This document shows, piece by piece, positions 4,939 through 58,629 of a stretch of DNA of 64,000 nucleotides; within the stretch, counting starts at the first letter, position 1, and each line of letters begins with the position of its first letter. The position numbers and the translations under genes are program-made. Source of the stretch: Oligoflexia bacterium (GTDB lineage: Bacteria > Bdellovibrionota > UBA1018 > CAIMNF01); the NCBI GenBank assembly GCA_903831745.1, contig CAIKYX010000130.1, positions 5,653-69,652 on the forward strand, read 5' to 3'. The notes beneath the pieces were generated by a model, which worked only from the letters and a program-made list of their open reading frames with translations, was not told where the DNA came from and made no database searches.

Positions 4939-4945
4939 GCTCGAG

Positions 4946-8637: not shown

Positions 8638-8660
8638 GATTTCATGCTAATCTTTTCGAC

Positions 8661-10019: not shown

Positions 10020-10038
10020 TAGGTGTCGGACACCTATT
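10018..10038. terminator. Bidirectional intrinsic-terminator-like hairpin between convergent glyQS and the GT4 gene
   Basis: Perfect palindrome aataggtgtc g gacacctatt (8-10 bp stem) in the 21-nt gap between the two stop codons. Confidence 0.45.
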
Positions 10039-10040
10039 GA

Positions 10041-27788: not shown

Positions 27789-28544
27789 ATGATCAGCGTT
27801 GTGACCATTACCTACAACAATTACGAAGAATTGATTGAAACCCTGGATTCGATCAAGGGGCTTACCTCCGTTCAATCGATTGTCGTCAATGGCGGAAGCT
27901 GCGAGAAAACCCGAAACTTTCTTTCGAGTTATCCGGGTGTGGTCATCAGCGAAAAGGATCATGGCATTTCGGATGCTTTTAACAAGGGGCTTAAACTAGC
28001 CGAAGGAACGGGTGTGATGTTCCTCAATTCGGGCGACCGCCTGATTTTTCGTGATTACCCTGCAGTCGCCGAAGAACTGCTTGGAAAATACGATTTCATC
28101 CATTCAGACATCATTTTCGATGATGCAATCACCGGCCCCATTCGCATGAAACCCGCCCTTTGCTCCGTAGGGTATGGCATGCCTTATTTTCACCAATCGA
28201 TGGTCATCAAAAGCGAATGGATGAGAAAAGCAGGCCTTTTCGATCTGAATTTTAAAATCGCCATGGACTACGATTATGTGATCAGGCTTCAGAAACTCGG
28301 AGCGCGTGGATATTACTTTAATGCCGCACCGACCATTCATATGGATGGCCAGGGAATTTCAGCAACCCAGGAAAACAAGAGCCTGGCCGAATGTTATACC
28401 TCGATGAAGAAGAACGATGTGCTGAACCTTCAGAACCGTGCTGGCTTCGCGCTAAGAAAAGCGAGATTATCGGCCAGACAAACCTTAACCCGCCTGGGCC
28501 TTCCTTCGGTCATCGGCTGGATCAAGAAAATCAAACACTCTTAG
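27789..28544 (+). CDS. Glycosyltransferase family 2
   Basis: 251 aa. MISVVTITYNNYEELIETLDSI...SEKDHGISDAFNKGL...FLNSGD (GT-A fold DxD-like). Confidence 0.8.
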   Translation: MISVVTITYNNYEELIETLDSIKGLTSVQSIVVNGGSCEKTRNFLSSYPGVVISEKDHGISDAFNKGLKLAEGTGVMFLNSGDRLIFRDYPAVAEELLGKYDFIHSDIIFDDAITGPIRMKPALCSVGYGMPYFHQSMVIKSEWMRKAGLFDLNFKIAMDYDYVIRLQKLGARGYYFNAAPTIHMDGQGISATQENKSLAECYTSMKKNDVLNLQNRAGFALRKARLSARQTLTRLGLPSVIGWIKKIKHS

Positions 28545-29659
28545 TCCTGGTCGATATGAAAAAGATCTTTTTGTGAAAAAGCCTGCAGAGACGCTGAAAA
28601 ATCCTGCTTCATGCTGCCTTCATCAAGATATCCCACCCAATTGATTTTCGGAAACATCGACCCGCCAAAAAGCTCTTTAAAATGACTGATCGACACTTCT
28701 TTCGCCGAGGCTTGATACAACCAATGCGGCCCGAAATAAAGCTCACCCAGCTCGTAAAACAAAAACCCCAACTTGCGGTAATGCAGAATCGCTTCCCATT
28801 CGAGAATATGCCGCGGCGAATATTCACGCTCATATTCCTCGAGATTCGCCTGCGACCAACTCCAAACCATTTTTGAAAACTCACCACAATACAAAAAACT
28901 AATGGGTTTTTCTTCGACAAAGGCCACAAAAAGGCGCGCTTGCCCCTGGTGAGCACGGGCGAGCATGGCATCCCAGGTCGAGTGAGGCCTGGTCCACCGT
29001 CCCGCTGAAAGATAATGGGCATTCTTAAAAGCCGCGAAATTCGCGTCGAGTTCTTGAGCGCTTTCACTAGCAGAAAAAGATCGAACACTTACGCCCTTTT
29101 TGGCGGCCTGCCTGACGTTGATTCGGTGCGATTTAGAAACGTTATTTAAGAGCGTCTCTTCAGGCAAACTCAGGTTCATGATGGCAGTATTCTTGATATC
29201 CGAAAGGAATCCATACTTCTTCATCTCGAATCCATTTTCAAAACCCACGAGACTCTGATCGCACACCCCTCGGGTAATCGGGTGACTGATCATTCGCACC
29301 TTTTTTGCCCCTGCTTCTCGAGCGATACCGTAAACCTGTGCAAAAACCTCGGCAGAGATCTTGCGACGCAGTGTTGGCTGAATGGTGACGAACGCAGGTG
29401 CGGCTAATGGATTTCCACCCAGTGACAGTTCGTTTTCACCGGTTTTGGTATTTTTAGTCAGACCCAAAGCACAAACCGCAAGCGGGGTCTTTTCGTTTTC
29501 AAGCAAAATGAATGATTTTTGCTCTGTATTTTCATCAAAAAGTTGATTGTAATGAAGCCAATCCCAGCCATGCTGGTAAGTCGCTTCTTGAATCTGATTT
29601 ACCCAACCATCCCATTGTTCGCGCGTCGTCGCCTGGTGATGCTTGACTTTAAACTCCAT
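28541..29659 (-). CDS. FemAB-family / GNAT-fold acyl- or aminoacyl-transferase (Acetyltransf_6/DUF482-like)
   Basis: About 372 aa, starting at MEFKVKHHQ (ATG 29657-29659; 11-nt overlap with the pseI stop). Two-lobed GNAT-like architecture resembling FemX/FemAB peptidyl-transferases (LFVAFVEEKPISFLYCGEF...YSPRHILEWEAILHYRKLGFLFYELGE). Confidence 0.6.
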   Translation of the reverse strand: MEFKVKHHQATTREQWDGWVNQIQEATYQHGWDWLHYNQLFDENTEQKSFILLENEKTPLAVCALGLTKNTKTGENELSLGGNPLAAPAFVTIQPTLRRKISAEVFAQVYGIAREAGAKKVRMISHPITRGVCDQSLVGFENGFEMKKYGFLSDIKNTAIMNLSLPEETLLNNVSKSHRINVRQAAKKGVSVRSFSASESAQELDANFAAFKNAHYLSAGRWTRPHSTWDAMLARAHQGQARLFVAFVEEKPISFLYCGEFSKMVWSWSQANLEEYEREYSPRHILEWEAILHYRKLGFLFYELGELYFGPHWLYQASAKEVSISHFKELFGGSMFPKINWVGYLDEGSMKQDFSASLQAFSQKDLFHIDQD

Positions 29660-30710
29660 TTCGAACCATCTCCCAACGAAGCGCCTGCCCTCTGAGAAGC
29701 GGTACTTTTGCCGTGCCCGCAAGAACCTGATCCATGTGTTTCGGATCAAGGCCATGTCCCGGTCGAATGATTCTTACATTTTCGTTCGTAAACTTCTCGC
29801 CGGCCTGCATGTCTTTGATGACGTAGATCGAACGCTTGAATTGAATCGACTTCTTTTCTCCCTCAGACAACTCGAAAGTCATTTTACCCAAACCCTGCCA
29901 CGCACGAAGCGACTCATCGACCAACAACTTTAACTCGTGGGGTTCCATCGAAAACGCAGAATCGACTCCACCTTCGGCCCTACTTTCGGTAAAATGCTTC
30001 TCGATCACTCGTGCGCCAAGCGCAATACTCGCGACTGACACACCGATTCCGAGCGTGTGGTCCGACAAACCAATATTCAAATCGAGTTTTTCGCGCAAAA
30101 AAGGAATGGTCATCAGATTGGTTGCCAGAGGTGATGCGGGATACGTGCTGGTACACTTTAGAAGAATCGCATCGCTTGCGCCTTCCTTCTTTAGAAAGGC
30201 ATCGAGCTCTTGAATATGTTCGAGCGAGGATATGCCGAGCGAAATAATGACGGGTTTTCCGGTTTTGATTACCTTTCGAATCAGAGGATAATGATTGTTT
30301 TCGAAAGAGGCGATTTTGTAGCATGGTGGATTGAACTGTTCCAGAAAATCGACCGCTGCTTCATCAAAGGGCGTACTGAAACAGATCAGGCCATGTTTTT
30401 TGGCGCGTTCAAAAAGAGCCGCATGCCATTCATACGGGGTATTGGCCTCTTGATACAATTCATAAAGTTTTCGACCCGCCCAAAGGCTCTTGGGATCTTG
30501 AATGATAAAATCAGGAGCATCACAGTCGATGGTCAGACTATCCGGCGTATAGGTTTGAAGCTTGATCGCCTGTGCGCCCGCTGCTGCCGCAAGGTCGATC
30601 AATTTAAGGGCCCGGTCTACCGAATGATGGTGATTACCAGAGAGTTCAGCAATGATGAACGGTGGATGATCCGGACCGATCTGATATTTTCCAATTGAAA
30701 CAGTTTTCAT
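29649..30710 (-). CDS. pseI: Pseudaminic acid synthase (NeuB family)
   Basis: 353 aa. MKTVSIGKYQIGPDHPPFIIAELSGNHHHSVDRALKLIDLAAAAGAQAIKLQTY is the NeuB TIM-barrel start. C-terminal antifreeze-like SAF domain. Neighbours are pseG/pseF/pseB/pseC. Confidence 0.85.
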   Translation of the reverse strand: MKTVSIGKYQIGPDHPPFIIAELSGNHHHSVDRALKLIDLAAAAGAQAIKLQTYTPDSLTIDCDAPDFIIQDPKSLWAGRKLYELYQEANTPYEWHAALFERAKKHGLICFSTPFDEAAVDFLEQFNPPCYKIASFENNHYPLIRKVIKTGKPVIISLGISSLEHIQELDAFLKKEGASDAILLKCTSTYPASPLATNLMTIPFLREKLDLNIGLSDHTLGIGVSVASIALGARVIEKHFTESRAEGGVDSAFSMEPHELKLLVDESLRAWQGLGKMTFELSEGEKKSIQFKRSIYVIKDMQAGEKFTNENVRIIRPGHGLDPKHMDQVLAGTAKVPLLRGQALRWEMVRNGV

Positions 30711-30762: not shown

Positions 30763-31752
30763 ATGCGAATCCTCTTTAGAGTCGACTCATCGCTCGAAAT
30801 CGGAACCGGACATGTGGTTCGCTGCCTTTCACTTGCCCATGCACTGAGAAACAATGGACATCAAGTGTCTTTTTGGAGCCTTGACCTTCCGGGCAATGAT
30901 CTTTCGTCAATCAGAAAAAATGGTTATTCGCTGTTTGATCCTGCTTCTTCAGATCGATTTGATCTGGCGATAGTAGACCATTATGGAATTGATCAGGAAG
31001 GCGAAAACCATATCAGACAATGGGCGACCTCGCTTGTTGCCATTGATGACTGGGGAACCAGACTTCATCACGCCGATTTGATTCTCGACCCATCGGTAAG
31101 CACCCAATCGACCCTTAGAATAAAAGCCAATCCAACCACACCGTTTCTGACCGGATTTGATTGGCTGCTCATGCGGGATGATTTCAAGAAACTTCATCCA
31201 GAAGTTCCACCTCGAACTGAATTTAAAAAGGTACTTTTGTTTTTTGGTGGAACCGATCCGCAGAGCCAGTGCCTGAGTTACCTCGAAGCACTCCTTCAAT
31301 CACAAAACGAATTCAATCATCTTGAGTTTCACATGATGGTTTCGGCAGTCCATCCAACACTCAAACAAATGCAGAGCCTGAAATTGCCAAATCATGTTCA
31401 TCTTGAAGTTTCTCCGCCCTCCGTTGCAAAGCTCATGAGAAATTCAGATCTCTATCTGGGAAGTAGCGGCACCGTCACCTGGGAAAGAATGGCCATGGGC
31501 CTGACCGGCTTGATCGTTTCGGTAGTAGATAACCAAGAGGACATTGCGAAAAACCTCGACCAAATGGGGTTTCATCGTTATCTCGGAAAATGCCAGGACG
31601 TTACCCCGAAGTTTGCATTGGAAAAGCTCAAGGAATTACTGAATCAAAGTGAAATGATTTCAAGAATGTCGTCTCTTTGTTATCAAAAAGTCGACGGACA
31701 AGGAGTCGATCGATTCGTTCAGGAGCTAGAGAATCGATTCAAAGCCACTTAG
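30763..31752 (+). CDS. pseG: UDP-2,4-diacetamido-2,4,6-trideoxy-beta-L-altropyranose hydrolase
   Basis: 329 aa. MRILFRVDSSLEIGTGHVVRCLSLAHAL is the PseG hallmark N-terminus (RxDxSxxIGxGHVMRC). GT-B-like MurG/GT28 C-domain. Confidence 0.8.
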   Translation: MRILFRVDSSLEIGTGHVVRCLSLAHALRNNGHQVSFWSLDLPGNDLSSIRKNGYSLFDPASSDRFDLAIVDHYGIDQEGENHIRQWATSLVAIDDWGTRLHHADLILDPSVSTQSTLRIKANPTTPFLTGFDWLLMRDDFKKLHPEVPPRTEFKKVLLFFGGTDPQSQCLSYLEALLQSQNEFNHLEFHMMVSAVHPTLKQMQSLKLPNHVHLEVSPPSVAKLMRNSDLYLGSSGTVTWERMAMGLTGLIVSVVDNQEDIAKNLDQMGFHRYLGKCQDVTPKFALEKLKELLNQSEMISRMSSLCYQKVDGQGVDRFVQELENRFKAT

Positions 31753-33794
31753 CCCTTCGAACCATACGTCCAACTCTGATAATCATCATGATCCTGAGAC
31801 ACTTCAAACCCTGCCTCATGGGCCATGCGAATTGAAGCGGGATTGCCTTTTTTAATTTCAGCGACATAGTGGTCTGGATTTTCGAGCACAAAACACGAGA
31901 GCATTGCTTTACCGATCCCCTGTCCCTGAAGTTCGGGAGCAACCAACCAGGAAAGCTTCCAAGCCGGTTCGCCCGAAATGCGATCTCGTCGAATCATACC
32001 CACTGGCTTTCTATTTTTGATGACCATATAAATCTCGCGATCCGCATTGCTGAGGGTTTTTTCAAACCAGGCCAGATGCTGCTCGATTGGAATACTTTCG
32101 GTCTGATGCGATTGTGCCCGTACACTTTCAGAGTTACGCCACTGGTGGACCAGATGAGCATCCTCACTTGCGGCAGGCACAAAAAGCAATTGGTCACTGA
32201 ACAGTTCCGCGGAATCACAAAAAGAACGAAACACCAAAGAATCCGTCTGCTTCAGGTACTTCGAATTCTGACAAAGGCGGACATATTCTCTTAAATGTTC
32301 GCTCTGGGTAAACTTTCGCCACTCCTGCTGAATCATCGCATTTTCATTCGCTTTGAGTTTGCCCGGAAACGGGTACAAAAAATGGAGGTAATAAAACTCA
32401 TGAATTTTTGCTTTTGCATCTGCCGGCACCGCAGGAATCGCGTCAATGTTCATCAGGAATTGCTCGTATTCTTCACGGCTTTTTGGATGCACGCAAAAAT
32501 CAAAAGTAACATGCGGATTATCACCTGCATTCAACACCCGAATTCCTTGATACGGAAACTCATGACCCAAAGTACCATATACGGTAACCGCAAGATCAAA
32601 GCCCTCGTCTAACAACTGTTTATTGCTGGTATGACGAGGCAGGAATTTGATCTCCGGAAATTCCTTTTTCAATTGTTCGATAATCTCGTCATTTCCTGCA
32701 ACCCCGTTCGGATGGGCCTTCACATAAAAATCTGCGGGGCTTTGAGTAGCAATTTTTAGCGTTGCCCGAATCCAATGGTAAAAGTCAGGATAAAGCATCG
32801 AACGATAGCCATGAGGGCTGTCGAAGAAACAATGAAGAAAAACCACCACCCTCTTTTTACCATTTTGCGCAAACACCTTTGACTTCTCGTCTACAGGCGA
32901 ATGATAGGCGCTCGAATTCATGTAAGTAATGGCCTGGTCCTTTTCGCCCGAGAATCGTTTCAGCAGCATGGTTTCTGCGGCACTTTTTCCAACTTGCTTT
33001 TCGGAATCGCTGAGCCGCTGAAACGAGCCGTGATAGTCGGTAAAATTCTTGCTATGAAATGGAAATTCACTGACCAGCTTCATGCTCAATTGATCATAAT
33101 CTCCGAATGAAATTACTTTTACGCCACGAGCGAGTGCCACTCGGGCCATGATTCCGTGCTGAATATAGCTACTATAGGAAGTGATCAGATAATCGTACTT
33201 TTTTTCAGAGAGCAAGGATTCGGCGCGATTGAAAATGTGAAGTGCGCTTACCATAATCCGTTTTAAGAACGGATCCTTGAGATCAACGGTCGGGCTCGGC
33301 TTGAATCTTAAGTAAGTATCATAGATCAGGCTCCCGATCAGGATACCGTGATATTGAAGTTCGAGCAGCGAAAATGGATCTGAAAGACCCATGAAAAGAT
33401 CTTCTGCCTCTGCAACCCAGACCGGATTCAAATCAGATTCATAAAAGATATGAGAGAAAACGGCCTTACCCCCATTTGACTGGTAGAGTTTGTTCCACTT
33501 TCTTTCGAAGAATCGATTTCTCTTGAGGAATCCTGATTTGCCAGAACGTTGGAACTCCGTATTGACATTGATCCAGCCGATATCGACTTTGAATTTTCTC
33601 CTGAGCGAGCGAAGAAGCGAAGAAAACAACAGCAGATAATAGTACTCTTCTGGCATCTGAACCAGTACTTTCAATTCCGAACCCGTTTTTGAAGGCACGA
33701 CTAACGATCGATTGAAACGGATGAATTCCTTCTCTGCAGCGTTAAGAAAAACCGCTGACTTAACGTTCTGAAGTTGAAGAAGGACTTTATTCAT
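31749..33794 (-). CDS. Two-domain protein: Capsule_synth (KpsC/KpsS)-like putative nonulosonic/keto-sugar-acid transferase + C-terminal PseH-like GNAT N-acetyltransferase
   Basis: 681 aa. N-terminal ~540 aa carry KpsS-like motifs (VVVFLHCFFDSPHG ... DFYVKAHP ... FDLAVTVYGTLGHEFPYQGIRVLNAGDNPH). The C-terminal ~130 aa form a GNAT (MVIKNRKPVGMIRRD...LVAPELQGQGIGKAML). Paralogous to the 33887..35347 product. Confidence 0.65.
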   Translation of the reverse strand: MNKVLLQLQNVKSAVFLNAAEKEFIRFNRSLVVPSKTGSELKVLVQMPEEYYYLLLFSSLLRSLRRKFKVDIGWINVNTEFQRSGKSGFLKRNRFFERKWNKLYQSNGGKAVFSHIFYESDLNPVWVAEAEDLFMGLSDPFSLLELQYHGILIGSLIYDTYLRFKPSPTVDLKDPFLKRIMVSALHIFNRAESLLSEKKYDYLITSYSSYIQHGIMARVALARGVKVISFGDYDQLSMKLVSEFPFHSKNFTDYHGSFQRLSDSEKQVGKSAAETMLLKRFSGEKDQAITYMNSSAYHSPVDEKSKVFAQNGKKRVVVFLHCFFDSPHGYRSMLYPDFYHWIRATLKIATQSPADFYVKAHPNGVAGNDEIIEQLKKEFPEIKFLPRHTSNKQLLDEGFDLAVTVYGTLGHEFPYQGIRVLNAGDNPHVTFDFCVHPKSREEYEQFLMNIDAIPAVPADAKAKIHEFYYLHFLYPFPGKLKANENAMIQQEWRKFTQSEHLREYVRLCQNSKYLKQTDSLVFRSFCDSAELFSDQLLFVPAASEDAHLVHQWRNSESVRAQSHQTESIPIEQHLAWFEKTLSNADREIYMVIKNRKPVGMIRRDRISGEPAWKLSWLVAPELQGQGIGKAMLSCFVLENPDHYVAEIKKGNPASIRMAHEAGFEVSQDHDDYQSWTYGSKG

Positions 33795-33886: not shown

Positions 33887-35347
33887 TTGAAAAGCCTGAT
33901 TTATAATGGAACTCATTCGCAAGTTTCGATCGACATCCTGAAAGGGATCCTCGCCTCCTCACCCGCCCTTGAAGATGTGTGCATTATTTCTTCAGTTGCT
34001 GCGAAGCCTGAAGAAATCGATTTCAAGCAAATCCGCCATCAGGAATTCGATTATTTTAAGGTTCATGATGCCATTTATCCTGAAATCACAGCGCTTCAGC
34101 AAGGGCTGATGCTCGACGGCCCCAGACTCGATCAGATGTCTTCCTATTGGTTCGTCGCTCTTAAAATGATGGATCGGCTGTCACCCGAAATTGCCCTCAA
34201 TTACCACACGCGCATGGAGCTTCTTCTCAATCACATCCGTTTTTGGGATGCGTACCTGACTGAATACAAAGTCGATTGCTACATGGGAATGAATTATCCC
34301 CACGAGGTTTTTGATTACGTCATTTATGCGCTTTGCAAATCGAAGGGTATTCGCACCCTGTTCTTCGATACACCTCAAGTTCCGGGTTATGTTCAACTGA
34401 TTGATTCGGTAGAAGAAAATAATCCTCAAATTAAAAAACTGATTGAAGCCCAGCCAGCCCCTGCGAACATCAGGCTCGAACCCAGACTCGAGGAGTATTA
34501 CCAACGTCAGACTACGAATTATCAGACCCCGAAATACATGCAAAAGAATCTGGCCAGTCTGAAGCGCGAAACCTCTACGGTCCAACTCATTCAACGTTTC
34601 TTTACCCGCTCTTGGTCGCGGATCAAGCGTGCCGTGACGCTGAGGCATCTCAATTATGACCGCGTGATTAAAATTCTTTATTTTAATACCCTCTTTGGTT
34701 CAAGGGCAGAACGAAAACTCAAACAGGCCTACCAAGCATTGGTCAGCATTCCCGACTTTTCAAAACCGTATATTTTTGTTCCGCTTCATTTTCAACCCGA
34801 ATGCACCACCAGCCCCCAAGGCGGTTATTTTGTGTTTCAAGAGCTCCTGATCGAGATGTTAGAGCGCACTTTGCCCGAAGGGCACCTGATCTACGTCAAG
34901 GAACATCCGATTCAACGATTACACGGACGCTCAGCCGGATTTTATCAAAAAATTGCAGCATTTAAGAAAGTCAGACTCGTTCCACTCGAAACCAGTGCAC
35001 AAGACCTCATCAAAAGCAGCCTCGCCGTTGCTACGGTAACCGGCACCGCGGGATGGGAAGGACTCTTCAAGAATAAGCCCGTATTCTTGTTTGGATCGGT
35101 ATTCTTTCAATATGCCCCGGGAGTATATACGATTCGAAGTGAAAGCGACTGTAGGCTTGCACTCAAAGAAATTCTCTCTCGAACCACTCCATTCGATTTT
35201 TCGAGAGAGCTCAGATATTTTTTATCTAAGGTACCAGAATTCATGATTCGCGGATGGATCGATTCTTCCTATGAAGATGTTGCGGGCATCACTTACCCCG
35301 AAAACCTCAAAAACCTCGTTACCGCGGTTCAGAATCGCCTTCGATAA
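33887..35347 (+). CDS. Capsule_synth (KpsC/KpsS)-like putative glycosyltransferase (paralog of 31749..33794 N-domain)
   Basis: 486 aa. Apparent TTG start with a GAGGA RBS. Motifs YIFVPLHFQPECTTSP, LIYVKEHP and SSLAVATVTGTAGWEGLFKNKPVFLFGSVFFQY parallel the KpsS/KpsC signature (LQV..D / KxHP / S..GfEAl..gKPV). Confidence 0.6.
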   Translation: MKSLIYNGTHSQVSIDILKGILASSPALEDVCIISSVAAKPEEIDFKQIRHQEFDYFKVHDAIYPEITALQQGLMLDGPRLDQMSSYWFVALKMMDRLSPEIALNYHTRMELLLNHIRFWDAYLTEYKVDCYMGMNYPHEVFDYVIYALCKSKGIRTLFFDTPQVPGYVQLIDSVEENNPQIKKLIEAQPAPANIRLEPRLEEYYQRQTTNYQTPKYMQKNLASLKRETSTVQLIQRFFTRSWSRIKRAVTLRHLNYDRVIKILYFNTLFGSRAERKLKQAYQALVSIPDFSKPYIFVPLHFQPECTTSPQGGYFVFQELLIEMLERTLPEGHLIYVKEHPIQRLHGRSAGFYQKIAAFKKVRLVPLETSAQDLIKSSLAVATVTGTAGWEGLFKNKPVFLFGSVFFQYAPGVYTIRSESDCRLALKEILSRTTPFDFSRELRYFLSKVPEFMIRGWIDSSYEDVAGITYPENLKNLVTAVQNRLR

Positions 35348-35351: not shown

Positions 35352-36677
35352 CTAAAGGATTTTTCTGAAAACAGGCTTGGCCACGTCACCTACCAAGAAC
35401 TTCTGATACCCGCCTTCGAGCGCCTTTTGATAAACCTCGAGAGTACCGCCCAACGCTTCCATGAAAGAGTCCGCTTCAGCTTTCTCGTGAGAAAAACAAG
35501 GCACAAACACACCTTGAAACAACACGCCTCGCTTGATCATTTCTTGAAGCGCCAGGGTGCGCATTCCTGGACACACTGTATTTTCTTTGTTCTTAAAAAT
35601 AAACATCGGAAACCACTCGCTCGGCACAAACTGAACGTAATCGGCCAAACCATTTTTTTGAATCAGTGCTTTGGCCGCTTCCGAAAAGTAATTTCCAATT
35701 TGATGATTGTGTTGAAGCACATTCTTGGTCTTGAATTCGTGAATAGTGGCAATCGCTGCCGCGAGCGATATCGTTTCGCCGCCATGAGTACTGGAAATCA
35801 AAAATACTTTCTCATCACCCTTCTTTCGAATTCCCCCCAGCTCCATGACCTCTTTCTTTCCGGTCAGGGCGCAAAATGAAAAACCGTTGGCAATTCCCTT
35901 ACCCCACGTCGCCATGTCGGGCACCACGCCGTACTTCTTGATTGAGCCAGGAAAGTCGGTTTTAAAACCGGTAATCATCTCGTCGACAATAAAAAGCGCA
36001 CCATTTTTAGCGCAAATTTCTTGAATTTCTTTAAGGTAGGTCGGGGCGTGAATATTGCTCTTTTCGGGCTCTGAAATCACACAAGAAATCTGATTCGGGT
36101 ATTTTACAAACAGCTCTTTTAACGTTTCGAGATCTGTAGATTTGAAAGTCAGACTTAAATCAGAAAACTCTTCGGGCACTCCGCGGTTACAAGCCGTCTT
36201 TCCAATAAACCAATCATCATAAGAATAAAATGGATGATCCCCCGGAAAAGCCACTAATTTTCGATTGGTCTTTGCTCGAGCAAGCTTTACAGCGGCAGTG
36301 GTGACGGTAGATCCGTTCTTTGCAAACTTGATCATGTCGTGGCCTGGCGTGAGCGACAAAAAAGCCTCAGCAGTCTGACGCTCGAGCACTGACGGTCGTT
36401 GAAAATTTACACCATCCTCGAGTGCGCGTCGTACCGCTTCATTGACCGGCTCATAGGCATGACCCAAACTCACCGAAGTTAGTCCCATCGAACAATCCAG
36501 ATATTTATTTTCATCCAGATCCCAAACATAAGCTCCCTTGCCTCTCAGGATCGCAGCCGGTGCTTGTTCTGGAAACTGGTCGTCTCCTTTTGAATAGGTG
36601 TGCGCCCCCCCCGGAATCAGGTCGTGAATGACTTTTCGGTATTCGTTTGATTTTTGAAATTGAGTAATGAAGTTCAT
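35352..36677 (-). CDS. Class-III (glutamate-1-semialdehyde aminomutase-like) PLP-dependent aminotransferase
   Basis: 441 aa. GAHTYSKG, DCSMGLTSVSLGHAY, FIVDEMITGFK, and PLP-lysine context MATWGKGIANGFS. Confidence 0.85.
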   Translation of the reverse strand: MNFITQFQKSNEYRKVIHDLIPGGAHTYSKGDDQFPEQAPAAILRGKGAYVWDLDENKYLDCSMGLTSVSLGHAYEPVNEAVRRALEDGVNFQRPSVLERQTAEAFLSLTPGHDMIKFAKNGSTVTTAAVKLARAKTNRKLVAFPGDHPFYSYDDWFIGKTACNRGVPEEFSDLSLTFKSTDLETLKELFVKYPNQISCVISEPEKSNIHAPTYLKEIQEICAKNGALFIVDEMITGFKTDFPGSIKKYGVVPDMATWGKGIANGFSFCALTGKKEVMELGGIRKKGDEKVFLISSTHGGETISLAAAIATIHEFKTKNVLQHNHQIGNYFSEAAKALIQKNGLADYVQFVPSEWFPMFIFKNKENTVCPGMRTLALQEMIKRGVLFQGVFVPCFSHEKAEADSFMEALGGTLEVYQKALEGGYQKFLVGDVAKPVFRKIL

Positions 36678-36687
36678 AATTACGTCC

Positions 36688-37362
36688 TTATTCCTGAATC
36701 AAGGCCAGATAGTCCCGCCAAGGACGATCGTACCCTATTTGTTTCACTAGTTTTGAAATGACTTGAAAATCTTCTTCGCGATCGACAGTCAGGCGGATTT
36801 TGCTTTGATCAATACCCTGGGCATGATTTCCGAGCTTAAATATTTCGGGATGTTCCCAAATATACGGGGTAACATGTTCGGTCTCGCGAGGTTTCGACGC
36901 TTCATCAAAAGCCCGTTTCAGAGCACTGAATCGAAAGATTTCTACATCGAGTCCATCCGGATAAGTCGCAGGGTGAACATTCGAATAGTAATCAAAATCC
37001 GATTTTTCGAATTTTTGCAGCATTTCGTCGATCATCGCACCGTCGTTCAAAGGACAATCAGAGGTAACTCGAATGACTGTCTCGGGTTGATAGCGTTCGG
37101 CTGCGCGGTAAAACCGTTCAAGCACATGGTGAAGTGACCCGCGATAAGAAAGACAGCCCATTTTTGTTGCAATCGAAACAATTTCTACCGACTCGGGCTC
37201 GTCCGTTGTTGCCACCATGATTGCGTCAGAAAGATGCGACCACTTAAGTCGGTGCAAATGAATCTCAAGTAGAGTCACTCCATCGATGGTCTTCAGAACT
37301 TTGCCCGGAAGCCTGGTTGAACCAAAGCGAGCCTGAGTGATGATCAGAGTTTTCATTTCCAA
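36688..37362 (-). CDS. pseF: Pseudaminic acid cytidylyltransferase (CMP-NeuAc synthetase family)
   Basis: 224 aa. MEMKTLIITQARFGSTRLPGKVLK (CTP_transf_3 signature). Confidence 0.8.
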   Translation of the reverse strand: MEMKTLIITQARFGSTRLPGKVLKTIDGVTLLEIHLHRLKWSHLSDAIMVATTDEPESVEIVSIATKMGCLSYRGSLHHVLERFYRAAERYQPETVIRVTSDCPLNDGAMIDEMLQKFEKSDFDYYSNVHPATYPDGLDVEIFRFSALKRAFDEASKPRETEHVTPYIWEHPEIFKLGNHAQGIDQSKIRLTVDREEDFQVISKLVKQIGYDRPWRDYLALIQE

Positions 37363-38222
37363 GCCCTCGGATCAATCCATTTCGGATTTTCAATCTGGAT
37401 ACTCGATATTTGGTCGATGATACCTGGGCTTAAAATCTGACTTTGAACAGAAAGGTTATCCATCAGCTGCCTTTGACTTTCGACTCCGATAATGATCCGA
37501 TCGATTTCTTCGAAGTGCGAAGCATAGGCGAGAGCCAGATGGTTTACCGGTAACCCCATTTGTTTTGAAAGTTCGCGCAAACGCAGAAGCTCTGGCTTCA
37601 GAGGCTTGAGCATCTCCGGCAAGAGTTCGAGTTCACGATAAAAAAGCCCCTGCAAAAACACCGAGCGCACATGGACTTCTTTTTTGTTGGCTTTGGCTCG
37701 CCTGATCCCAGGCCCTCGGAGCGACCAATTATCGAATAAATTAAAAGGTGTTTGAATGATATCGATGTGGTCAAGCAGAGCGGCAGCGTCGAGCTCCTCA
37801 ACAGTATAAACAGACACGCCGATTTTCTGAATCAGGCCACCGTTCTTTAGGTCAAGAAGTTCGTGCTTTTTCTCGAGGTCATGAACGTCGGAAAACTGAT
37901 GATAGGAATAGCCATATACTCCGCAAACACCCAACCGCTCCAGACTCGAACTCAGCTGTTTTTTCAAGCTTGCTTCGTTAGATTTGAATTTGGTCAGAAT
38001 TTTAAAATGATGGTTTGGATGTTTTAAAAAATAACTTCCGATGATTTGTTCGCTCTCGCCGTAACTCTCGGCAGTATCCAGATAACGGATTCCTTCGCGT
38101 TCACAGAGATCCAGGATCAAGAAGGCTTCGCCTTCGCTCGGTTTTCCGGTTTGATTGTTAATGCCATAAGGCAATCCCAATTGAACCGTACCCAAGACCA
38201 GTTTCTCTTGAAGAGAGTTCAT
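37353..38222 (-). CDS. Aldo/keto reductase
   Basis: 289 aa. LVLGTVQLGLPYGINNQ...LDTAESYGESEQIIG is the AKR N-terminal signature. Translationally coupled to pseC (upstream) and pseF (downstream). Confidence 0.8.
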   Translation of the reverse strand: MNSLQEKLVLGTVQLGLPYGINNQTGKPSEGEAFLILDLCEREGIRYLDTAESYGESEQIIGSYFLKHPNHHFKILTKFKSNEASLKKQLSSSLERLGVCGVYGYSYHQFSDVHDLEKKHELLDLKNGGLIQKIGVSVYTVEELDAAALLDHIDIIQTPFNLFDNWSLRGPGIRRAKANKKEVHVRSVFLQGLFYRELELLPEMLKPLKPELLRLRELSKQMGLPVNHLALAYASHFEEIDRIIIGVESQRQLMDNLSVQSQILSPGIIDQISSIQIENPKWIDPRAWK

Positions 38223-39373
38223 CGCGCAAAAAACTCCTTCAGACTACCCACGACCCGAGTCTGCTCTTCATCTGACATCGAGTGATACATCGGAATACTC
38301 AAACACTGATTATAGAAAGCATCAGACAGTTCGAACTGTTGCTTTCCATAGCGTTCAACGTAATACGGATGCTGATGCACCGGTATGTAGTGAACTTGGG
38401 CATAAATATTTTTGGTCTTTAAGAAGTCATAAAGTTCGCGACGCTGGGCCGTCTGAATCACGTACAAATGAAATGCATGAACCGAATCAGGCGCGGTATA
38501 AGGAAGTACTACCGGTAGATCCTTTAGCTCGTGATCATACCGTTTTGCAATCTCCTGACGCCGTTTAAAATTAGCTTCTGCACGCTTAAGCTGACTATTT
38601 CCGAGGGCACAGAGCATATCTGGAATGCGATAATTGTAACCCAACTCTTGCATCTCCATAAACCAGCCCCCGTCGTTTCGGGCCATTTGTGCCGGGTCTT
38701 TGGTAATGCCATGAGTGCGAAGTTTCTGCATCCGCTGATAGAGCTTCTGGTCGTTAGTCGTGATCATTCCCCCTTCGCCGCTCGCGATGTGTTTGACCGG
38801 ATGAAATGAGAAAATGCTGAGCTCGGAATATTTGCCGTTTCCTGAGCGCTGCACCGTCTTTTGCGCATCTAAAAAACTCGCCCCAGGAGCATGACATGCG
38901 TCTTCGATGATCCAAAGTCCGTAACGATCGGCCAACGCGCGAAAAGCATCCGCCTGAATCGGATGACCAGCATAATCGACAGGAATAATGCCAGAATATT
39001 TCTTGGGATTCTTTTTCAGCAAATCCTCGACCCTGTTTAAATCGAGGCAATAAGTTTTAGGATCGATATCGGCGAAGTCGACATCGCCTCCGCAATAAAG
39101 AACACAGTTCGCACTCGCCGCAAACGTAATGGGGCTCGTAATCACTCTTTGGCCAGGCTTTACATTCAGTGCCATTGTAGAAAGATGAAGGGCTGCGGTT
39201 CCATTGGCCACAGCAACTGCATATCGGGCGCCTACGTAACGGGCAAACGCTTCTTCGAATTCGTTCACCATCGGACCTTGGGTTAAAAAATCAGATTGCA
39301 ACGAAGCCACTACCGCCTGAATGTCGTCTTCGGTGATTTGCTGCTTGCCATAAGGAATGGTTGAACTTGCCAT
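38219..39373 (-). CDS. pseC: UDP-4-amino-4,6-dideoxy-N-acetyl-beta-L-altrosamine transaminase (DegT family)
   Basis: 384 aa. IPYGKQQITEDDIQAVVASLQSDFLTQGPMVNEFEEAF matches the PseC N-terminus pattern. PLP lysine in SFHPVKHIASGEGG. Directly downstream of pseB. Confidence 0.82.
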   Translation of the reverse strand: MASSTIPYGKQQITEDDIQAVVASLQSDFLTQGPMVNEFEEAFARYVGARYAVAVANGTAALHLSTMALNVKPGQRVITSPITFAASANCVLYCGGDVDFADIDPKTYCLDLNRVEDLLKKNPKKYSGIIPVDYAGHPIQADAFRALADRYGLWIIEDACHAPGASFLDAQKTVQRSGNGKYSELSIFSFHPVKHIASGEGGMITTNDQKLYQRMQKLRTHGITKDPAQMARNDGGWFMEMQELGYNYRIPDMLCALGNSQLKRAEANFKRRQEIAKRYDHELKDLPVVLPYTAPDSVHAFHLYVIQTAQRRELYDFLKTKNIYAQVHYIPVHQHPYYVERYGKQQFELSDAFYNQCLSIPMYHSMSDEEQTRVVGSLKEFFAR

Positions 39374-39375: not shown

Positions 39376-40386
39376 TTACGCCTCGAAATGGTGGTCAACA
39401 TGTTCCTTGATCTGGACCCTTAATTCTTCAGCCGACAACCATTCTGTGTTTTCGCCCGAATTGTATTTAAACCCTTCGGTAACAAATTTTGCCGAAAACT
39501 TTTTCAGGTAATCGTCTTTCTTCCAGTTCGGATGACTTGGAATGATGACATAATACTTTCCGCAATCGAGCGTATTCAGCGAATCTGATTCAGTAATCAT
39601 CTCTTCGTGTAACTTTTCGCCCGAGCGAATTCCCACGATCTCGGTCTTACATTTCGGACCAATGGCTTTTGCCATTTCGAGAATTCGATAAGAAGGAATC
39701 TTCGGGACGAAAATCTCGCCGCCCCAGGAATTTTCGAGCGCATGAAGTACCATCTTTACACCCTCTTCTAGCGTAATATTGAAACGGGTCATGTTTTCGT
39801 GCGTTACTGGCAGCGTTCCGGTCGAACGCATTTTCATGAAAAACGGAACCACAGAGCCGCGAGAGCCAAGCACGTTTCCGTAGCGGACCACCGAAAAAGT
39901 GAGATCGCGTTTTCCCTTAATATTATTGGCAGCAATGAAAAGCTTGTCCGAGCATAGTTTGGTTGCACCATACAGATTCACCGGTGCCGCCGCCTTATCG
40001 GTCGAAAGCGCAACCACCTTGGTGACACCGCAATCGAGGGCTGCGTTGATGACATTTTCGGCGCCGAAAATATTGGTGTTGATACATTCCATTGGATTGT
40101 ACTCGGCAGTCGGAACCTGCTTGAGCGCCGCTGCATGGATGATGATGTCGACACCTTCACAAGCACGTTTCATGCGGGCACCATCTCGAACATCACCAAT
40201 GAAATATCTCATTTGCGGATATTTCTTCGGATCAAATTGCTGGGCCATTTCGAATTGCTTGAGTTCGTCCCGTGAGTAAACAATTAATTTTTTTACTTCG
40301 GGATAAAGCTCCAGAACCATCTGAATGAATTTTTTTCCGAAAGATCCGGTTCCACCGGTTACCAATATGGTTTTACCTTTTAGCAT
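39376..40386 (-). CDS. pseB: UDP-N-acetylglucosamine 4,6-dehydratase (inverting)
   Basis: 336 aa. MLKGKTILVTGGTGSFGKKFIQMVLELYPEVKKLIVYSRDELKQFEM...HAAALKQVPTAEYNPMECINTNIFGAENV...YGATKLCSDKLF is near-identical in pattern to Campylobacter/Helicobacter PseB (FlaA1). Confidence 0.92.
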   Translation of the reverse strand: MLKGKTILVTGGTGSFGKKFIQMVLELYPEVKKLIVYSRDELKQFEMAQQFDPKKYPQMRYFIGDVRDGARMKRACEGVDIIIHAAALKQVPTAEYNPMECINTNIFGAENVINAALDCGVTKVVALSTDKAAAPVNLYGATKLCSDKLFIAANNIKGKRDLTFSVVRYGNVLGSRGSVVPFFMKMRSTGTLPVTHENMTRFNITLEEGVKMVLHALENSWGGEIFVPKIPSYRILEMAKAIGPKCKTEIVGIRSGEKLHEEMITESDSLNTLDCGKYYVIIPSHPNWKKDDYLKKFSAKFVTEGFKYNSGENTEWLSAEELRVQIKEHVDHHFEA

Positions 40387-42089
40387 ATTCCACCTCTATC
40401 TTTTTTCAGCTCCAGGGTTCTGGTAGCAATTTTATCGAAACTTGATTTGTGACTGATGATAATGGTCGTAATTTCTTTGAGAATGCCTTCGATCGAACGA
40501 ATGAATTTGGATTCTGTTTCGCCATCGAGATTGGCTGTCGCTTCATCGAGAATCAGGATCTGGGGCTTTCGAACCACGCCACGTGCGATGGATAAACGCT
40601 GCTTTTGTCCGGTCGACATGGGCGTTTGTTCTTGAATGAAATAATCGAGAGCAAATCGCTCGTCAGTGAGTTGCGCTTTTAAAAGAGCGTCTTTCATCTC
40701 CGCATCGGTCACTGTTTCTGGACTATGGTGACCGAACAAGAGGTTTTCGCGAATGGTTCCTGCAATCATATAGGGTTCGGGCCCGACATAGGCCACTCGT
40801 TCGAACAAACTGTTTTTTACAGATTCAATGGGCGCACCATTGATCAGCACCCCACCCCGGCTGGGCTTAAGTAGACCGAGCACCAGCATCAAAAGCGTGC
40901 TTTTACCGACTCCCGATTCGCCCTTGATCAGCAGCACCTGACCACGCCCCACCTCGAGGCTCAAATCATTGAATAGCTTCGGACCGCTGACATAACCAAA
41001 ATCGACGTTCTTAAGCTGAATCGAAACACCTTGCTCGCATGAAAGCGGAAGAACCGGAAACTTCTTCTCGGAATCTTCTTTTGCTTTTTGCTGACTCAGA
41101 CGTTCGTGCCATTGATAGATTTCCTTGAACCCTCCGAGATGAAGTCTGAATTCAGAAAGGGCAATATTGGCATCGCTCGCCCCTTGAGCTAGCCTGATAA
41201 AAAGATAGAAAAACGAAATCAGGGTAATCGCAGGAGTATGAATGTAGGCGATGCTGATATAGGTGATCGAACTGATGACAAAAATGCCAATGATATTCGG
41301 AAAGAAATTTTTTACAGAAGAGGCAACGAAATACGAACGGTAGTGCTGCTCGTAAACCACCAGAGCCGTATTCGCTCGTTTGATTTCACGATCTAACAAA
41401 CCATAGATCTTCAGCAAGAAATGGTGCCTCAGGCCTTCCATCAAAATCTTACTGACATTCTCCCACTGCCCACGAAAGCCATCTCCTGCTTTTTTGATGC
41501 CGGAATTGAACCGCCTGAGAGGGACAAGAAAAATACCGAGAAAGGTAAGCCCGATCAGCATCTCGATCGGTGCAAGCTTAAGCCCCATGGCAAAAAACAA
41601 AAAGGAAGAAGTTCCGACTAGCGTGAGTTGCGACAAGGACTGAAGCACTGAACCCGCCTGTGCCACACGTTCGGTAAAAATAGTAATGACCTGATGTGCA
41701 GAAACATCTTCGGCCTTGAGAAGCGCATACTCGAGCGTTCGAGAACGCTGAAGGCGAACGAACGCCTGCCCCGTCACGCCAGCAAGATAGGATCGGATCA
41801 TGTAAGCCACACCGCGGGCTACTCCGAACGTAAACAGAATCAAGACGGCTGAAAGAAGACTTGTCGGATACCACGCCGGCAATTTAAGGTCAGGCGACTT
41901 TACCAAGCCAATCGCCTGAAGAAATCCTTGAAGCACCGGAATAAACGACGCTTCGATCAGGAACATGAAAATTCCAAAGACGGTGGAAACAAAGAAAAGT
42001 CTCCAGACTTCCTTACCTAAAAAATTCTTAAACTTCCGAAATTGCTGCAGGTACTTTTGAATCATGTTTTGATTGAAAAAGGGTACCAA
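40380..42089 (-). CDS. ABC exporter, fused TMD-NBD half-transporter (type I exporter, MsbA-like fold)
   Basis: 569 aa. Six N-terminal TM helices, Walker A GESGVGKST, signature LSGGQKQRLSIARG (as read on the protein), Walker B ILILDEATANLD. First gene of the minus-strand operon that continues into pseB-pseC-AKR-pseF. Confidence 0.85.
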   Translation of the reverse strand: MVPFFNQNMIQKYLQQFRKFKNFLGKEVWRLFFVSTVFGIFMFLIEASFIPVLQGFLQAIGLVKSPDLKLPAWYPTSLLSAVLILFTFGVARGVAYMIRSYLAGVTGQAFVRLQRSRTLEYALLKAEDVSAHQVITIFTERVAQAGSVLQSLSQLTLVGTSSFLFFAMGLKLAPIEMLIGLTFLGIFLVPLRRFNSGIKKAGDGFRGQWENVSKILMEGLRHHFLLKIYGLLDREIKRANTALVVYEQHYRSYFVASSVKNFFPNIIGIFVISSITYISIAYIHTPAITLISFFYLFIRLAQGASDANIALSEFRLHLGGFKEIYQWHERLSQQKAKEDSEKKFPVLPLSCEQGVSIQLKNVDFGYVSGPKLFNDLSLEVGRGQVLLIKGESGVGKSTLLMLVLGLLKPSRGGVLINGAPIESVKNSLFERVAYVGPEPYMIAGTIRENLLFGHHSPETVTDAEMKDALLKAQLTDERFALDYFIQEQTPMSTGQKQRLSIARGVVRKPQILILDEATANLDGETESKFIRSIEGILKEITTIIISHKSSFDKIATRTLELKKDRGGIC

Positions 42090-42182: not shown

Positions 42183-42950
42183 ATGATTCCTGATGAATTC
42201 AGATTAGGGCTGTTTCAATGTGACCTCACCTGGGAAAACACTTCAGCCAACCTCTCCAGACTCGAAGCTCTCGGCCCCGAGTTCGCAGGCACCTGCGACT
42301 TGCTGCTGGTTCCCGAAACCTTTTCAACGGGCTTTACCTCAAAACCTGCCGGACTCGCACTCAATGAGCAAAACGGCGCGCTCGAACGAATCATTCAGGT
42401 GGCTAAAAACCTTAAAACCCACGTAGCAGGATCATTCATCTGGAAACATGAAAACACCTACCGCAATCGCTTTATACTGGTAAACGAACTGGGAATTCAG
42501 GGGCACTACGACAAACATCATCTTTTTGGTCTAGGTCAAGAGACCCAGTTATTTCAAGCCGGAATAGAGAGGACCACTTGGATGGTCGGTGGCTTCAAGA
42601 TTGCCCCGTTTGTTTGTTATGACTTGAGATTTCCAGAATGGTGCGGAAATTCCGAAAAGTGCGATTTGATGATTTTTTGCGCAAATTGGCCCGAGGCCCG
42701 AGTCAGCCATTGGAAGACGTTGCTGAACGCAAGGGCAATCGAGAATCAATGCTACGTTGCAGGCGTGAATCGAATCGGGCGCGACGGAAACCAACTCACC
42801 TATTCGGGCGACAGCCTGGTCATCGATGCGAACGGATCGACGCTTTTGGATTCAGGGGCGACCGAATCACTTAAAATAGTAAAACTATCAAAATCTAACC
42901 TGGCCGCTTACCGCAATAAACTACCGTTTTTGAACGACCGCTTTCAGTAA
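42183..42950 (+). CDS. Carbon-nitrogen hydrolase family (nitrilase/omega-amidase-like)
   Basis: 255 aa. Starts MIPDEFRLGLFQCDLTWEN. The catalytic E-K-C triad context includes ...VCYDLRFPEW (Cys). Confidence 0.78.
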   Translation: MIPDEFRLGLFQCDLTWENTSANLSRLEALGPEFAGTCDLLLVPETFSTGFTSKPAGLALNEQNGALERIIQVAKNLKTHVAGSFIWKHENTYRNRFILVNELGIQGHYDKHHLFGLGQETQLFQAGIERTTWMVGGFKIAPFVCYDLRFPEWCGNSEKCDLMIFCANWPEARVSHWKTLLNARAIENQCYVAGVNRIGRDGNQLTYSGDSLVIDANGSTLLDSGATESLKIVKLSKSNLAAYRNKLPFLNDRFQ

Positions 42951-51923: not shown

Positions 51924-52523
51924 CTAGTAGGTGCTCGCTGGCCCTTTGTTTTCGATATAACTGCGAAGGTACTGGCTGCTGAGATGCGAAAACATCAGTT
52001 GTGCATCTTCGACCGAGCCGTAATTGTGGGATTTGAAATGAAAGTTCACATCGGCAACTTCCTTGAGTTTGCCACCAGAAAACCCTACGAGAGCGATGGT
52101 TTTTCCGCCGTGCTTGCGGGTGAATTGCGCTGCCTGAACCACGTTTTCGGAATTACCTGAAGCGGAGATGGCAATCAAGACCGAGTCGGGTTCCCATAAG
52201 CTTTTCAATTGCTCAACAAAAACAGTTTGATAGCCACAATCATTTCCGTACGCAGTCAGCGTGCTCATGTTGTCAGCAAGTCCTACGACTTTGAGGCGTA
52301 ATTTGCCATCTACGACAGTGCCTTTGATCAGGTCATTGACCATGTGATTACTGGTGCCGGCAGAACCACCATTTCCGCAAATAAAAACAGGTCGTCGAGC
52401 CAGATAGGCATCGATGAGAATTTTCGTCGCTTCAGCGAAAGCGGGCCCCTGATATTCGTTGAAGAGCGGGAGTGTCTGGTTTAAGTATTGCGCGACAAAA
52501 GCGTCAGTTTGCTCCATGGACAA
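51924..52523 (-). CDS. gmhA: Phosphoheptose (sedoheptulose-7-phosphate) isomerase, SIS domain
   Basis: 199 aa. RPVFICGNGGSAGTSNHMVNDL and LIAISASGNSENVVQAAQFTRKHGGKTIALVGFSGG are classic GmhA motifs. Confidence 0.85.
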   Translation of the reverse strand: MSMEQTDAFVAQYLNQTLPLFNEYQGPAFAEATKILIDAYLARRPVFICGNGGSAGTSNHMVNDLIKGTVVDGKLRLKVVGLADNMSTLTAYGNDCGYQTVFVEQLKSLWEPDSVLIAISASGNSENVVQAAQFTRKHGGKTIALVGFSGGKLKEVADVNFHFKSHNYGSVEDAQLMFSHLSSQYLRSYIENKGPASTY

Positions 52524-54861: not shown

Positions 54862-54864
54862 ATC

Positions 54865-55905: not shown

Positions 55906-55920
55906 GAATCGGGGGATTCC

Positions 55921-58627: not shown

Positions 58628-58629
58628 CC

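Follow-up and report, generated by a model that had tools for sequence, protein, structure and literature searches.

Why does a gene cluster for the nonulosonic acid pseudaminic acid (Pse) carry an aldo-keto reductase (AKR) and a class-III aminotransferase among its biosynthetic genes? The question is raised by a 64,000-nucleotide (nt) stretch of an Oligoflexia bacterium genome (assembly GCA_903831745.1, contig CAIKYX010000130.1, positions 5,653 to 69,652), which we call the window. We find that the two enzymes, together with a cytidylyltransferase of the SpsF type, form a single three-enzyme module, and that this trio appears to replace PseF in an otherwise canonical Pse cluster of PseB, PseC, PseG, PseI and a PseH-like GNAT. 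In our leading reading, which we give about an even chance of being right, the AKR would oxidise the C8 hydroxyl of Pse, or of its conjugate with cytidine monophosphate (CMP), and the aminotransferase would then yield 8-amino-8-deoxy-Pse.

A three-gene cassette takes the place of PseF

The module lies on the minus strand and comprises three genes (coordinates are those of the window):

37353..38222, minus strand: AKR, 289 amino acids (aa); PF00248, E 1.6e-24
36688..37356, minus strand: SpsF/COG1861-type CTP_transf_3 cytidylyltransferase, 222 aa; PF02348, E 7e-31, 108 bits
35352..36677, minus strand: class-III aminotransferase dependent on pyridoxal phosphate (PLP), resembling glutamate-1-semialdehyde 2,1-aminomutase (GSAM; HemL), PRK06209 family, 441 aa; PF00202, E 1.7e-40

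A sequence-only reading of this stretch had proposed a transcription unit pseB-pseC-[AKR]-pseF-[aminotransferase] with overlaps of 4–10 nt. Profile matches and the sequence itself bear out the packing of the AKR and the aminotransferase with pseB and pseC on the minus strand. The proposed gene order also stands, but the unit takes in an ABC exporter gene (42089-40380) upstream of pseB as well. The pseC/AKR and AKR/cytidylyltransferase junctions are ATGA start/stop overlaps of 4 nt each; the 10 nt between the cytidylyltransferase and the aminotransferase are a spacer, containing AGGA, and not an overlap. The cytidylyltransferase starts at ATG 37356, giving the same 222-aa product as in public assemblies, and not at TTG 37362. 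A promoter and terminator scan of 33.5–42.6 kb was uninformative, as its matches were no better than those of shuffled sequences, and co-transcription is argued from the packing of the genes and their conserved order. PseB, PseC, PseG and PseI all exceed the equivalog cutoffs of their models, and PseH is recognisable at the domain-family level only.

The label pseF, given to the middle gene of the cassette in the sequence-only reading, proved wrong at the family level. Against the PseF model TIGR03584 the cytidylyltransferase reaches 20.3 bits, about 185 short of the cutoff of 205.7, and only over residues 7–70. Its match to PF02348 spans residues 7–205, indicating a CTP_transf_3 fold with the N-terminal CTP-binding loop, and its motifs QARFGSTRLPGK, RVTSDCPL and ETEHVTPY match invariant columns of the family alignment. 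The best match in the Protein Data Bank (PDB) is 6oew, a structure whose function is unpublished (134.8 bits, E 3.3e-38), and homologues named SpsF (JGI) are 48–63% identical. We found no second CTP_transf_3 gene within the 64-kb window, and none of the extra cytidylyltransferases tested in related loci is a canonical PseF.

Deletion of spsF in Bacillus subtilis leaves free legionaminic acid (Leg) being made and none on the spore surface, and the authors assigned SpsF as the CMP-Leg synthetase (PMC7439481). In a Vibrio study, an SpsF~AKR fusion was proposed to replace the missing NeuA/PseF of a Pse cluster (PMC7371886). The window enzyme shares with canonical PseF (TIGR03584, for example PDB 6IFD) the CTP_transf_3 family, the slot between PseC and PseG and, probably, the type of reaction; it differs in belonging to the SpsF/COG1861 branch and in travelling with an AKR and an aminotransferase. 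The gene occupies the position of pseF and probably does its job, encoding a probable CMP-nonulosonate synthetase that stands in for PseF.

The cassette is conserved and repeatedly fused

A scan with the aminotransferase across one genome per species matched at least 488 genomes, mostly Bacteroidota and Bdellovibrionota. We analysed the best 80 of the 488 loci by searching their open reading frames (ORFs) with the window proteins. Among the 60 loci with at least 5 kb of upstream sequence, an AKR is present in 57, a CTP_transf_3 gene in 58, PseB in 49 and PseC in 51; PseI is present in 56 of the 63 loci with at least 6 kb downstream. The synteny is near-universal, running PseB, PseC, (one small gene), AKR, cytidylyltransferase, aminotransferase, PseG and/or GNAT, and PseI. 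Dozens of genomes from several phyla share this order, a recurrence far greater than chance would produce. The cleanest example, locus L084, reads PseB-PseC-AKR-cytidylyltransferase-aminotransferase-PseG-PseH-PseI, which is the canonical order with the trio in place of PseF.

Gene fusions tie the three enzymes together further. The cytidylyltransferase and the aminotransferase form a single ORF in 33 of the 80 loci, and many aminotransferase homologues, which show an unusual degree of conservation (62–80% identity across Bacteroidota, Bdellovibrionota, Limnohabitans and others), are 695-aa fusions with an SpsF-type domain. Searches with the AKR returned AKR~cytidylyltransferase and cytidylyltransferase~AKR fusions (518–568 aa), GNAT~AKR(~cytidylyltransferase) fusions and formyltransferase~AKR fusions. 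An Aminotran_3 gene lies near all six of the AKR/cytidylyltransferase-fusion loci inspected, adjacent in four, and one such fusion gene sits in a flagellin/Maf locus. The aminotransferases beside the cytidylyltransferase~AKR fusions of loci L086 and L087, like those in viral contigs, are 30–36% identical to the window enzyme and lack its characteristic motifs, which suggests that two class-III lineages keep the same partners.

Two variations on the cluster were also seen. Loci of the Bdellovibrionota type (L062 1132-3243, L071 340-2415, L019, L050 and L064) encode a PseC with an RmlD-like reductase domain fused at its N terminus, a protein of about 700 aa. In a variant cassette (L014 7395-11341, L036, L043, L048, L050, L054, L066 and L068), the genes encode an AKR, a NeuB-like synthase of 326 aa, a divergent cytidylyltransferase of 246 aa and an aminotransferase, while a normal PseI is kept; the NeuB-like synthase scores below both the NeuB and the PseI cutoffs.

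The aminotransferase is GSAM-like and is not HemL

The aminotransferase matches the NCBIfam model NF004856/PRK06209 over its full length at 537.5 bits (cutoff 486), whereas it failed the hemL models TIGR00713 (187.5 against 527.3 bits), NF000818 (189.9 against 398) and NF009055 (149.6 against 637). K260 aligns with the PLP-binding lysine of the GK motif of GSAM and D232 with the aspartate of the DEV motif, and both residues are invariant in the family alignments. By contrast, the GSAM motif GGVSSPVRAF, whose arginine we take to be the substrate-binding Arg32 of GSAM, is replaced by an invariant GGxHTYSKGDDQFP, and the lid (gating) loop of GSAM is replaced by an invariant HPFYSYDDWFIG. Because the PLP residues are kept while the substrate motif and the lid are replaced, we regard the enzyme as a GSAM-like transaminase with a different substrate. 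Identity with HemL was rejected on the missed hemL cutoffs, the replacement of the GSA-binding motif and the lid loop, and the synteny with sugar genes.

GSAM and BioA, the nearest class-III relatives, both handle alpha-amino-carbonyl/vicinal-diamine pairs, a chemistry that matches a 7-acetamido-8-keto substrate. The window enzyme shares with them the fold and the PLP-binding lysine and aspartate, and differs in its family-specific N-terminal motif and lid and in a context of sugar biosynthesis, not of heme or biotin. We infer that it would act as an 8-keto to 8-amino transaminase. Our literature searches turned up class-III aminotransferases or GSAM together with pseudaminic or nonulosonic acids only in gene tables, and no functional study.

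Homologues that share the special motifs at 44% identity occur in rhizobia, at L081 11923-13368 (Sinorhizobium fredii NGR234, pNGR234b) and at L082 (a Shinella sumterensis plasmid). Their neighbours are a short-chain dehydrogenase/reductase (SDR), DUF4910, an RfbC-like epimerase, a methyltransferase, a glucose-1-phosphate cytidylyltransferase and a PIG-L deacetylase, which looks like an uncharacterised CDP-amino-sugar pathway. These megaplasmid matches, obtained by tblastn of plasmids, were set aside as candidates for the cassette on their identity of 44% and their CDP-hexose-type context, which is not the rkp Pse locus.

The AKR as a proposed source of the ketone

All 20 sequences of the family alignment keep the catalytic tetrad of the AKR, D49/Y54/K78/H108, which aligns with the DTAxxYG, TK and H motifs of IolS and YhdN. 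A plasmid of Priestia megaterium carries a sister cluster ordered PseB-(Pal-like SDR)-PseC-cytidylyltransferase-AKR-SDR(adh_short_C2)-PseG-PseH-PseI, and its AKR is 33% identical to that of the window over the full length (E 2e-42), with subfamily N- and C-terminal signatures in common; the two cytidylyltransferases are 23% identical (E 1e-13). The AKR belongs to a subfamily specific to nonulosonate clusters. A tblastn search of a phage collection gave no match to the AKR, and the cytidylyltransferase query found one unrelated marine virus.

A transaminase needs a carbonyl, and in the minimal cluster the AKR is the sole oxidoreductase besides PseB; for these reasons we propose the AKR as the source of the ketone, that is, as a C8-hydroxyl dehydrogenase giving an 8-keto intermediate. 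The Aci and Epa systems described below further suggest the oxidative direction, since their SDRs appear to be the reductases that set the stereochemistry, a deduction that is ours and not a statement of the authors of those studies.

Known systems that remodel C8

The closest functional parallel comes from prophages of Acinetobacter baumannii, in which EpaA joins CTP_transf_3 and Aldo_ket_red domains in one protein and EpaB (SBS22545.1) is an adh_short_C2 SDR; together they convert Pse5Ac7Ac into its C8 epimer, as established by complementation and nuclear magnetic resonance (NMR) (PMC12053666). The cytidylyltransferase, AKR and SDR of the sister clusters make up this same domain set. In addition to the Priestia cluster, the Marinovum plasmid pMaD10 carries an SDR, a cytidylyltransferase~AKR fusion, Capsule_synth and PseI. 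Two types of cassette can be recognised from gene content, with the cytidylyltransferase and the AKR in common and either an SDR or a class-III aminotransferase as the third enzyme. The SDR and the aminotransferase alternate: the 25 commonest accessory families listed for the aminotransferase loci include no SDR, and there is none in the window operon.

The window cassette resembles Epa in its Pse background, in the coupling of CTP_transf_3 to an AKR (fused in EpaA; adjacent here, with the 4-nt overlap), in a third enzyme that determines what becomes of the sugar, and in the existence of phage-borne versions of both. It differs in that the third enzyme is a class-III PLP aminotransferase and not an adh_short_C2 SDR, the outcome of Epa being epimerisation, and in that EpaA works beside a canonical PseF whereas the SpsF-type enzyme is the sole cytidylyltransferase of the window.

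Related logic is found on the Leg backbone. ElaA, ElaB and ElaC make 8-epi-legionaminic acid through a proposed CMP-8-keto-Leg intermediate (PMC13656337), and in the Aci pathways to acinetaminic acids an exchange of the SDRs AciB and AciE flips C8 (PMC5595891). Like our module, these systems combine a cytidylyltransferase, an oxidase and a second enzyme, and they are proposed to act on C8 via a CMP-8-keto-nonulosonate; unlike it, they use a Gfo/Idh/MocA oxidase and an SDR reductase, start from Leg and epimerise.

Amination at C8 has a counterpart in the Kdo8N pathway of Shewanella, whose transaminase, the partner of the oxidase KdnB, is presumably KdnA. To our knowledge, neither KdnB nor KdnA belongs to the enzyme families of this cassette. 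As the work is reported in a later paper, KdnB acts on C8 of Kdo (PMC5125639, citing Gattis 2013). In the Kdo8N pathway the C8 hydroxyl of a 2-keto-3-deoxy sugar acid is oxidised and then transaminated to an 8-amino sugar, as we propose here, whereas the substrate there is the eight-carbon Kdo, the reaction takes a primary alcohol to an aldehyde and the oxidase is of the Fe-ADH family.

A proposed route to 8-amino-8-deoxy-Pse

In the route we propose, PseB, PseC, PseH, PseG and PseI would build Pse5Ac7Ac as usual, and the SpsF-type enzyme would couple the sugar to CMP. The AKR, working as an NAD(P)+-dependent dehydrogenase, would oxidise the C8 secondary alcohol of free or CMP-linked Pse to a methyl ketone, which the class-III PLP enzyme would transaminate to CMP-5,7-diacylamido-8-amino-3,5,7,8,9-pentadeoxy-non-2-ulosonic acid (8-amino-8-deoxy-Pse). 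In clusters with an SDR, the same 8-keto sugar would instead be reduced to 8-epi-Pse. N-acylation of the new amine may follow, carried out by the extra GNAT or FemAB-like enzymes, with transfer of the sugar to a surface glycan as the last step. In this scheme we infer which substrate is used and at which carbon, which way the AKR runs and whether remodelling comes before or after CMP activation. C8 is favoured because the known remodelling systems act there, because a 4-keto group would labilise the CMP linkage and because an 8-amino sugar occurs in nature: an 8-amino-3,5,7,8,9-pentadeoxy manno-configured nonulosonic acid, bearing a 3-hydroxybutyramide, is found in the O-antigen of Tenacibaculum maritimum (Flavobacteriaceae) (PMC3210612), and its genes are stated to be unknown (PMC9796276).

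The sequence-only reading had also suggested extra redox and transamination chemistry on a Pse intermediate, such as the conversion of a keto group to an amine at another carbon. That idea gains partial support here, favoured by the fusions and by the alternation of aminotransferase and SDR in the sister clusters. The evidence speaks against its other suggestion, in which the two enzymes would generate a 3-hydroxybutyryl or similar N-acyl side chain, as set out below.

Weighing the alternatives

Several observations count against the proposed route. C8 was picked by analogy and chemistry, not from data, and the function of the cassette is predicted here from sequence. AKRs mostly run in the reducing direction. 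The authors of the Epa study name the AKR domain of EpaA a reductase and not an oxidase (PMC12053666). EpaA (SBS22546.1) was likened to our enzymes by domain content, the sequence comparison being made through the Priestia and Marinovum proxies, and the genome may hold a canonical pseF beyond the ends of the 64-kb window. Some loci do without an AKR: L079 has the cytidylyltransferase, the aminotransferase and an adh_short_C2 SDR, and the Bdellovibrio loci L062 and L071 have the aminotransferase with an RmlD-like domain. Because of these loci, the oxidoreductase partner seems interchangeable and the roles of the partners are not fixed. The simple scheme also leaves unexplained the NeuB-like gene inserted within the cassette in 11 of 60 loci and the two cytidylyltransferase genes of some loci; these may reflect remodelling before activation, or even before condensation, with the same predicted product. 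At least two GNAT domains lie between PseB and PseI in 26 of 45 complete loci, where canonical Pse needs one, and extra GNAT, ATP-grasp, formyltransferase, KAS-III and FemAB-like genes are common neighbours. This is suggestive of a further amine to acylate, although the count lacks a control set of canonical clusters and L084 carries one GNAT only. Finally, the O-antigen loci of Legionella pneumophila Sg6/Sg12 list the same gene types (PMC3694923), and legionaminic acid is the reported sugar of non-Sg1 Legionella strains.

Among other explanations, the nonulosonate might be remodelled with the amine placed at another carbon, such as C4, or the free 6-deoxy-hexose might be aminated before condensation with phosphoenolpyruvate, the cytidylyltransferase then activating the end product only. 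We consider this unlikely. The variant cassette, which keeps a second synthase and cytidylyltransferase beside PseI, would fit such a pre-condensation branch, and both the loci with two cytidylyltransferases and the occurrence of EpaA's own cytidylyltransferase domain in hosts with PseF would suit a free sugar that is remodelled first and then activated by an enzyme of its own. A 4-keto group beside the C3 methylene, however, would favour elimination of CMP, and the triamino sugar known from nature carries its extra amine at C8. For amination before condensation, the hexose carbon that becomes C8 carries the ring-forming C5 hydroxyl, making a 5-amino hexose awkward, and hexose C3 becomes the carrier of the nonulosonate ring oxygen. 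ElaA and ElaC have been modelled on CMP-linked substrates. Less probable again is a branch off the Pse pathway in which the substrate of the aminotransferase is a nucleotide-linked hexos-4-ulose, either what PseB makes or some other 4-keto-6-deoxy sugar, and the outcome a second diamino sugar or another C4 stereochemistry, with the AKR reducing the same ketone. The CDP-hexose context of the 44%-identical rhizobial homologues (glucose-1-phosphate cytidylyltransferase, SDR, RfbC-like) points that way, as do the many viral contigs with PseB and a class-III aminotransferase and no DegT gene in the fetched flank, but the aminotransferases of the viral contigs and of L086 type are 30–36% identical and lack the window-type motifs. 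PseC is moreover present in 51 of the 60 orthologous loci, the fusion partner is a CTP_transf_3 enzyme of the KdsB/NeuA type and not a sugar-1-phosphate nucleotidyltransferase, and in A. baumannii the cytidylyltransferase and AKR with an SDR act on Pse itself.

It strikes us as improbable that the AKR and the aminotransferase supply N5 or N7 of Pse with an unusual N-acyl donor (3-hydroxybutyryl or amino-acyl). Pse derivatives with 3-hydroxybutyryl, glyceroyl and alanyl groups are known, the T. maritimum sugar has its 3-hydroxybutyramide, and extra GNAT, ATP-grasp, KAS-III and FemAB-like genes are frequent in related loci. Against this, the minimal cluster L084 lacks genes for acyl-CoA or acyl carrier protein enzymes and for ligases, both enzymes are repeatedly fused to the nonulosonate-type cytidylyltransferase and not to acyltransferases, neither family is typical of acyl-thioester chemistry, and the homologous cytidylyltransferase, AKR and SDR set alters stereochemistry and not acylation. 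Lower still in probability is a cassette with no net amination, in which the PLP enzyme would serve as an epimerase or isomerase, or form a transient amine, and yield a Pse stereoisomer. The class-III fold does include racemases and epimerases, as PDB matches show, and Epa, Ela and Aci all epimerise; yet a PLP epimerase requires a substrate with a free amine, which Pse5Ac7Ac does not have, a cheap SDR already does the epimerisation elsewhere, and the window enzyme keeps the transaminase-type lysine and aspartate and is closest to true transaminases and GSAM. It is extremely improbable that the gene is a housekeeping hemL that sits beside sugar genes by accident. In source annotations, as in the name of NF004856, the enzyme is called glutamate-1-semialdehyde 2,1-aminomutase, but the near-universal synteny with nonulosonate genes and the fusion to the cytidylyltransferase oppose it.

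The surrounding surface-glycan region

The window belongs to an extensive surface-glycan region of a Gram-negative bacterium known only through metagenome assemblies. Lipid A genes and BamA lie upstream, and downstream come genes for heptose and for other amino sugars. The region has an even GC content, and base composition does not mark the cassette and its surroundings as a foreign island. The genes next to the cassette are the following:

40380..42089, minus strand: ABC exporter with fused membrane and ATPase domains (PF00005, PF00664), which opens the transcription unit
39376..40386, minus strand: PseB, inverting UDP-GlcNAc 4,6-dehydratase; TIGR03589, 523 bits (cutoff 407.75)
38219..39373, minus strand: PseC, DegT-family C4 aminotransferase; TIGR03588, 480.8 bits (cutoff 423.5)
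33887..35347, plus strand: Capsule_synth (KpsC/KpsS-like) protein, convergent with the cassette; PF05159, E 2.2e-09
31749..33794, minus strand: 681-aa protein with a C-terminal PseH-like GNAT domain (residues 536–664); PF13302; TIGR03585, 48 bits (cutoff 93.1)
30763..31752, plus strand: PseG, UDP-sugar hydrolase; TIGR03590, 192.2 bits (cutoff 153.55)
29649..30710, minus strand: PseI, pseudaminic acid synthase; TIGR03586, 462.1 bits (cutoff 340.25)
28541..29659, minus strand: FemAB/Acetyltransf_6-like acyltransferase downstream of pseI, 372 aa in public assemblies; PF13480, E 4e-11

The ABC exporter gene overlaps the start of pseB by 7 nt. The Capsule_synth protein, whose family is seen again in related loci, is a candidate transferase for the activated sugar, and the FemAB-like protein is a candidate for the extra N-acylating enzyme. 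The first 530 or so residues of the 681-aa protein have no Pfam or NCBIfam match; a comparable 'bifunctional PseH' was noted in Vibrio (PMC7371886).

Elsewhere in the window, lipid-A-disaccharide synthase and tetraacyldisaccharide 4'-kinase domains are joined in an LpxB~LpxK fusion, a single 695-aa ORF (13190-15277, minus strand). Two large ORFs of the glycan region have no Pfam match (42944-44896, minus strand, 650 aa; 59625-61610, plus strand, 661 aa) and may be novel glycosyltransferases or polymerases. A second amino-sugar set (52580-59625, plus strand) holds two DegT aminotransferases, an SDR epimerase/dehydratase, a methyltransferase, E1 alpha/beta components of a thiamine-dependent dehydrogenase and another dehydratase, which suggests a branched or unusually acylated sugar. 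Near it lies a heptose set with SIS/GmhA-like (51924-52523) and HldE-like (47109-48614) genes.

Versions of the cassette on viral contigs

On the tailed-phage contig L093 (IMGVR_UViG_3300050014_000111), positions 2104-13034 encode a GNAT, a NeuB fragment, PseB, an AKR, an SpsF-type cytidylyltransferase, a class-III aminotransferase and a Maf/MptE-like protein. All of these genes lie between those for the terminase large subunit and a P22-like portal; L090, L092 and L094 are further cases. L093 thereby holds a phage-borne copy of the cassette along with a flagellin-glycosylation-type transferase. A scan of IMG/VR found 134 viral contigs with SpsF-type cytidylyltransferases, some labelled giant-virus metagenome-assembled genomes. 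Among 80 of these 134 (L089–L168), 29 have a class-III aminotransferase and 45 a PseB-like gene, and the contigs with PseB often show no DegT aminotransferase within the fetched flank.

Implications

Nonulosonic acids decorate flagella, capsules and O-antigens, and they control phage receptors, immune recognition and serotype. The post-synthetic modules described so far (Ela, Aci and Epa) epimerise C8 or C7 only. Such C8 remodelling cassettes were already known, as was the joint listing of these gene types in gene tables; what appears to be new is the reading of a class-III aminotransferase as a putative nonulosonate enzyme with a concrete product prediction. We tentatively propose, with somewhat less confidence than in the reaction itself, that the cassette is the missing genetic basis of 8-amino-8-deoxy (5,7,8-triamino) nonulosonic acids, a widespread and overlooked class of bacterial sugars akin to sialic acid, that reductase and transaminase modules share an 8-keto intermediate, and that phages use the cassette to re-decorate host surfaces or flagella.

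If this is true, a new chemical class would be added to the nonulosonate pathway map, and the orphan sugar of T. maritimum, a major fish pathogen, would gain its genes. A common mis-annotation would be corrected, affecting hundreds of proteins named glutamate-1-semialdehyde aminomutase or glycosyltransferase family protein, and glycan prediction in Kaptive-like schemes would acquire a marker for a modified sugar. The cassette would also offer a simple enzymatic route to amino-functionalised analogues of sialic acid.

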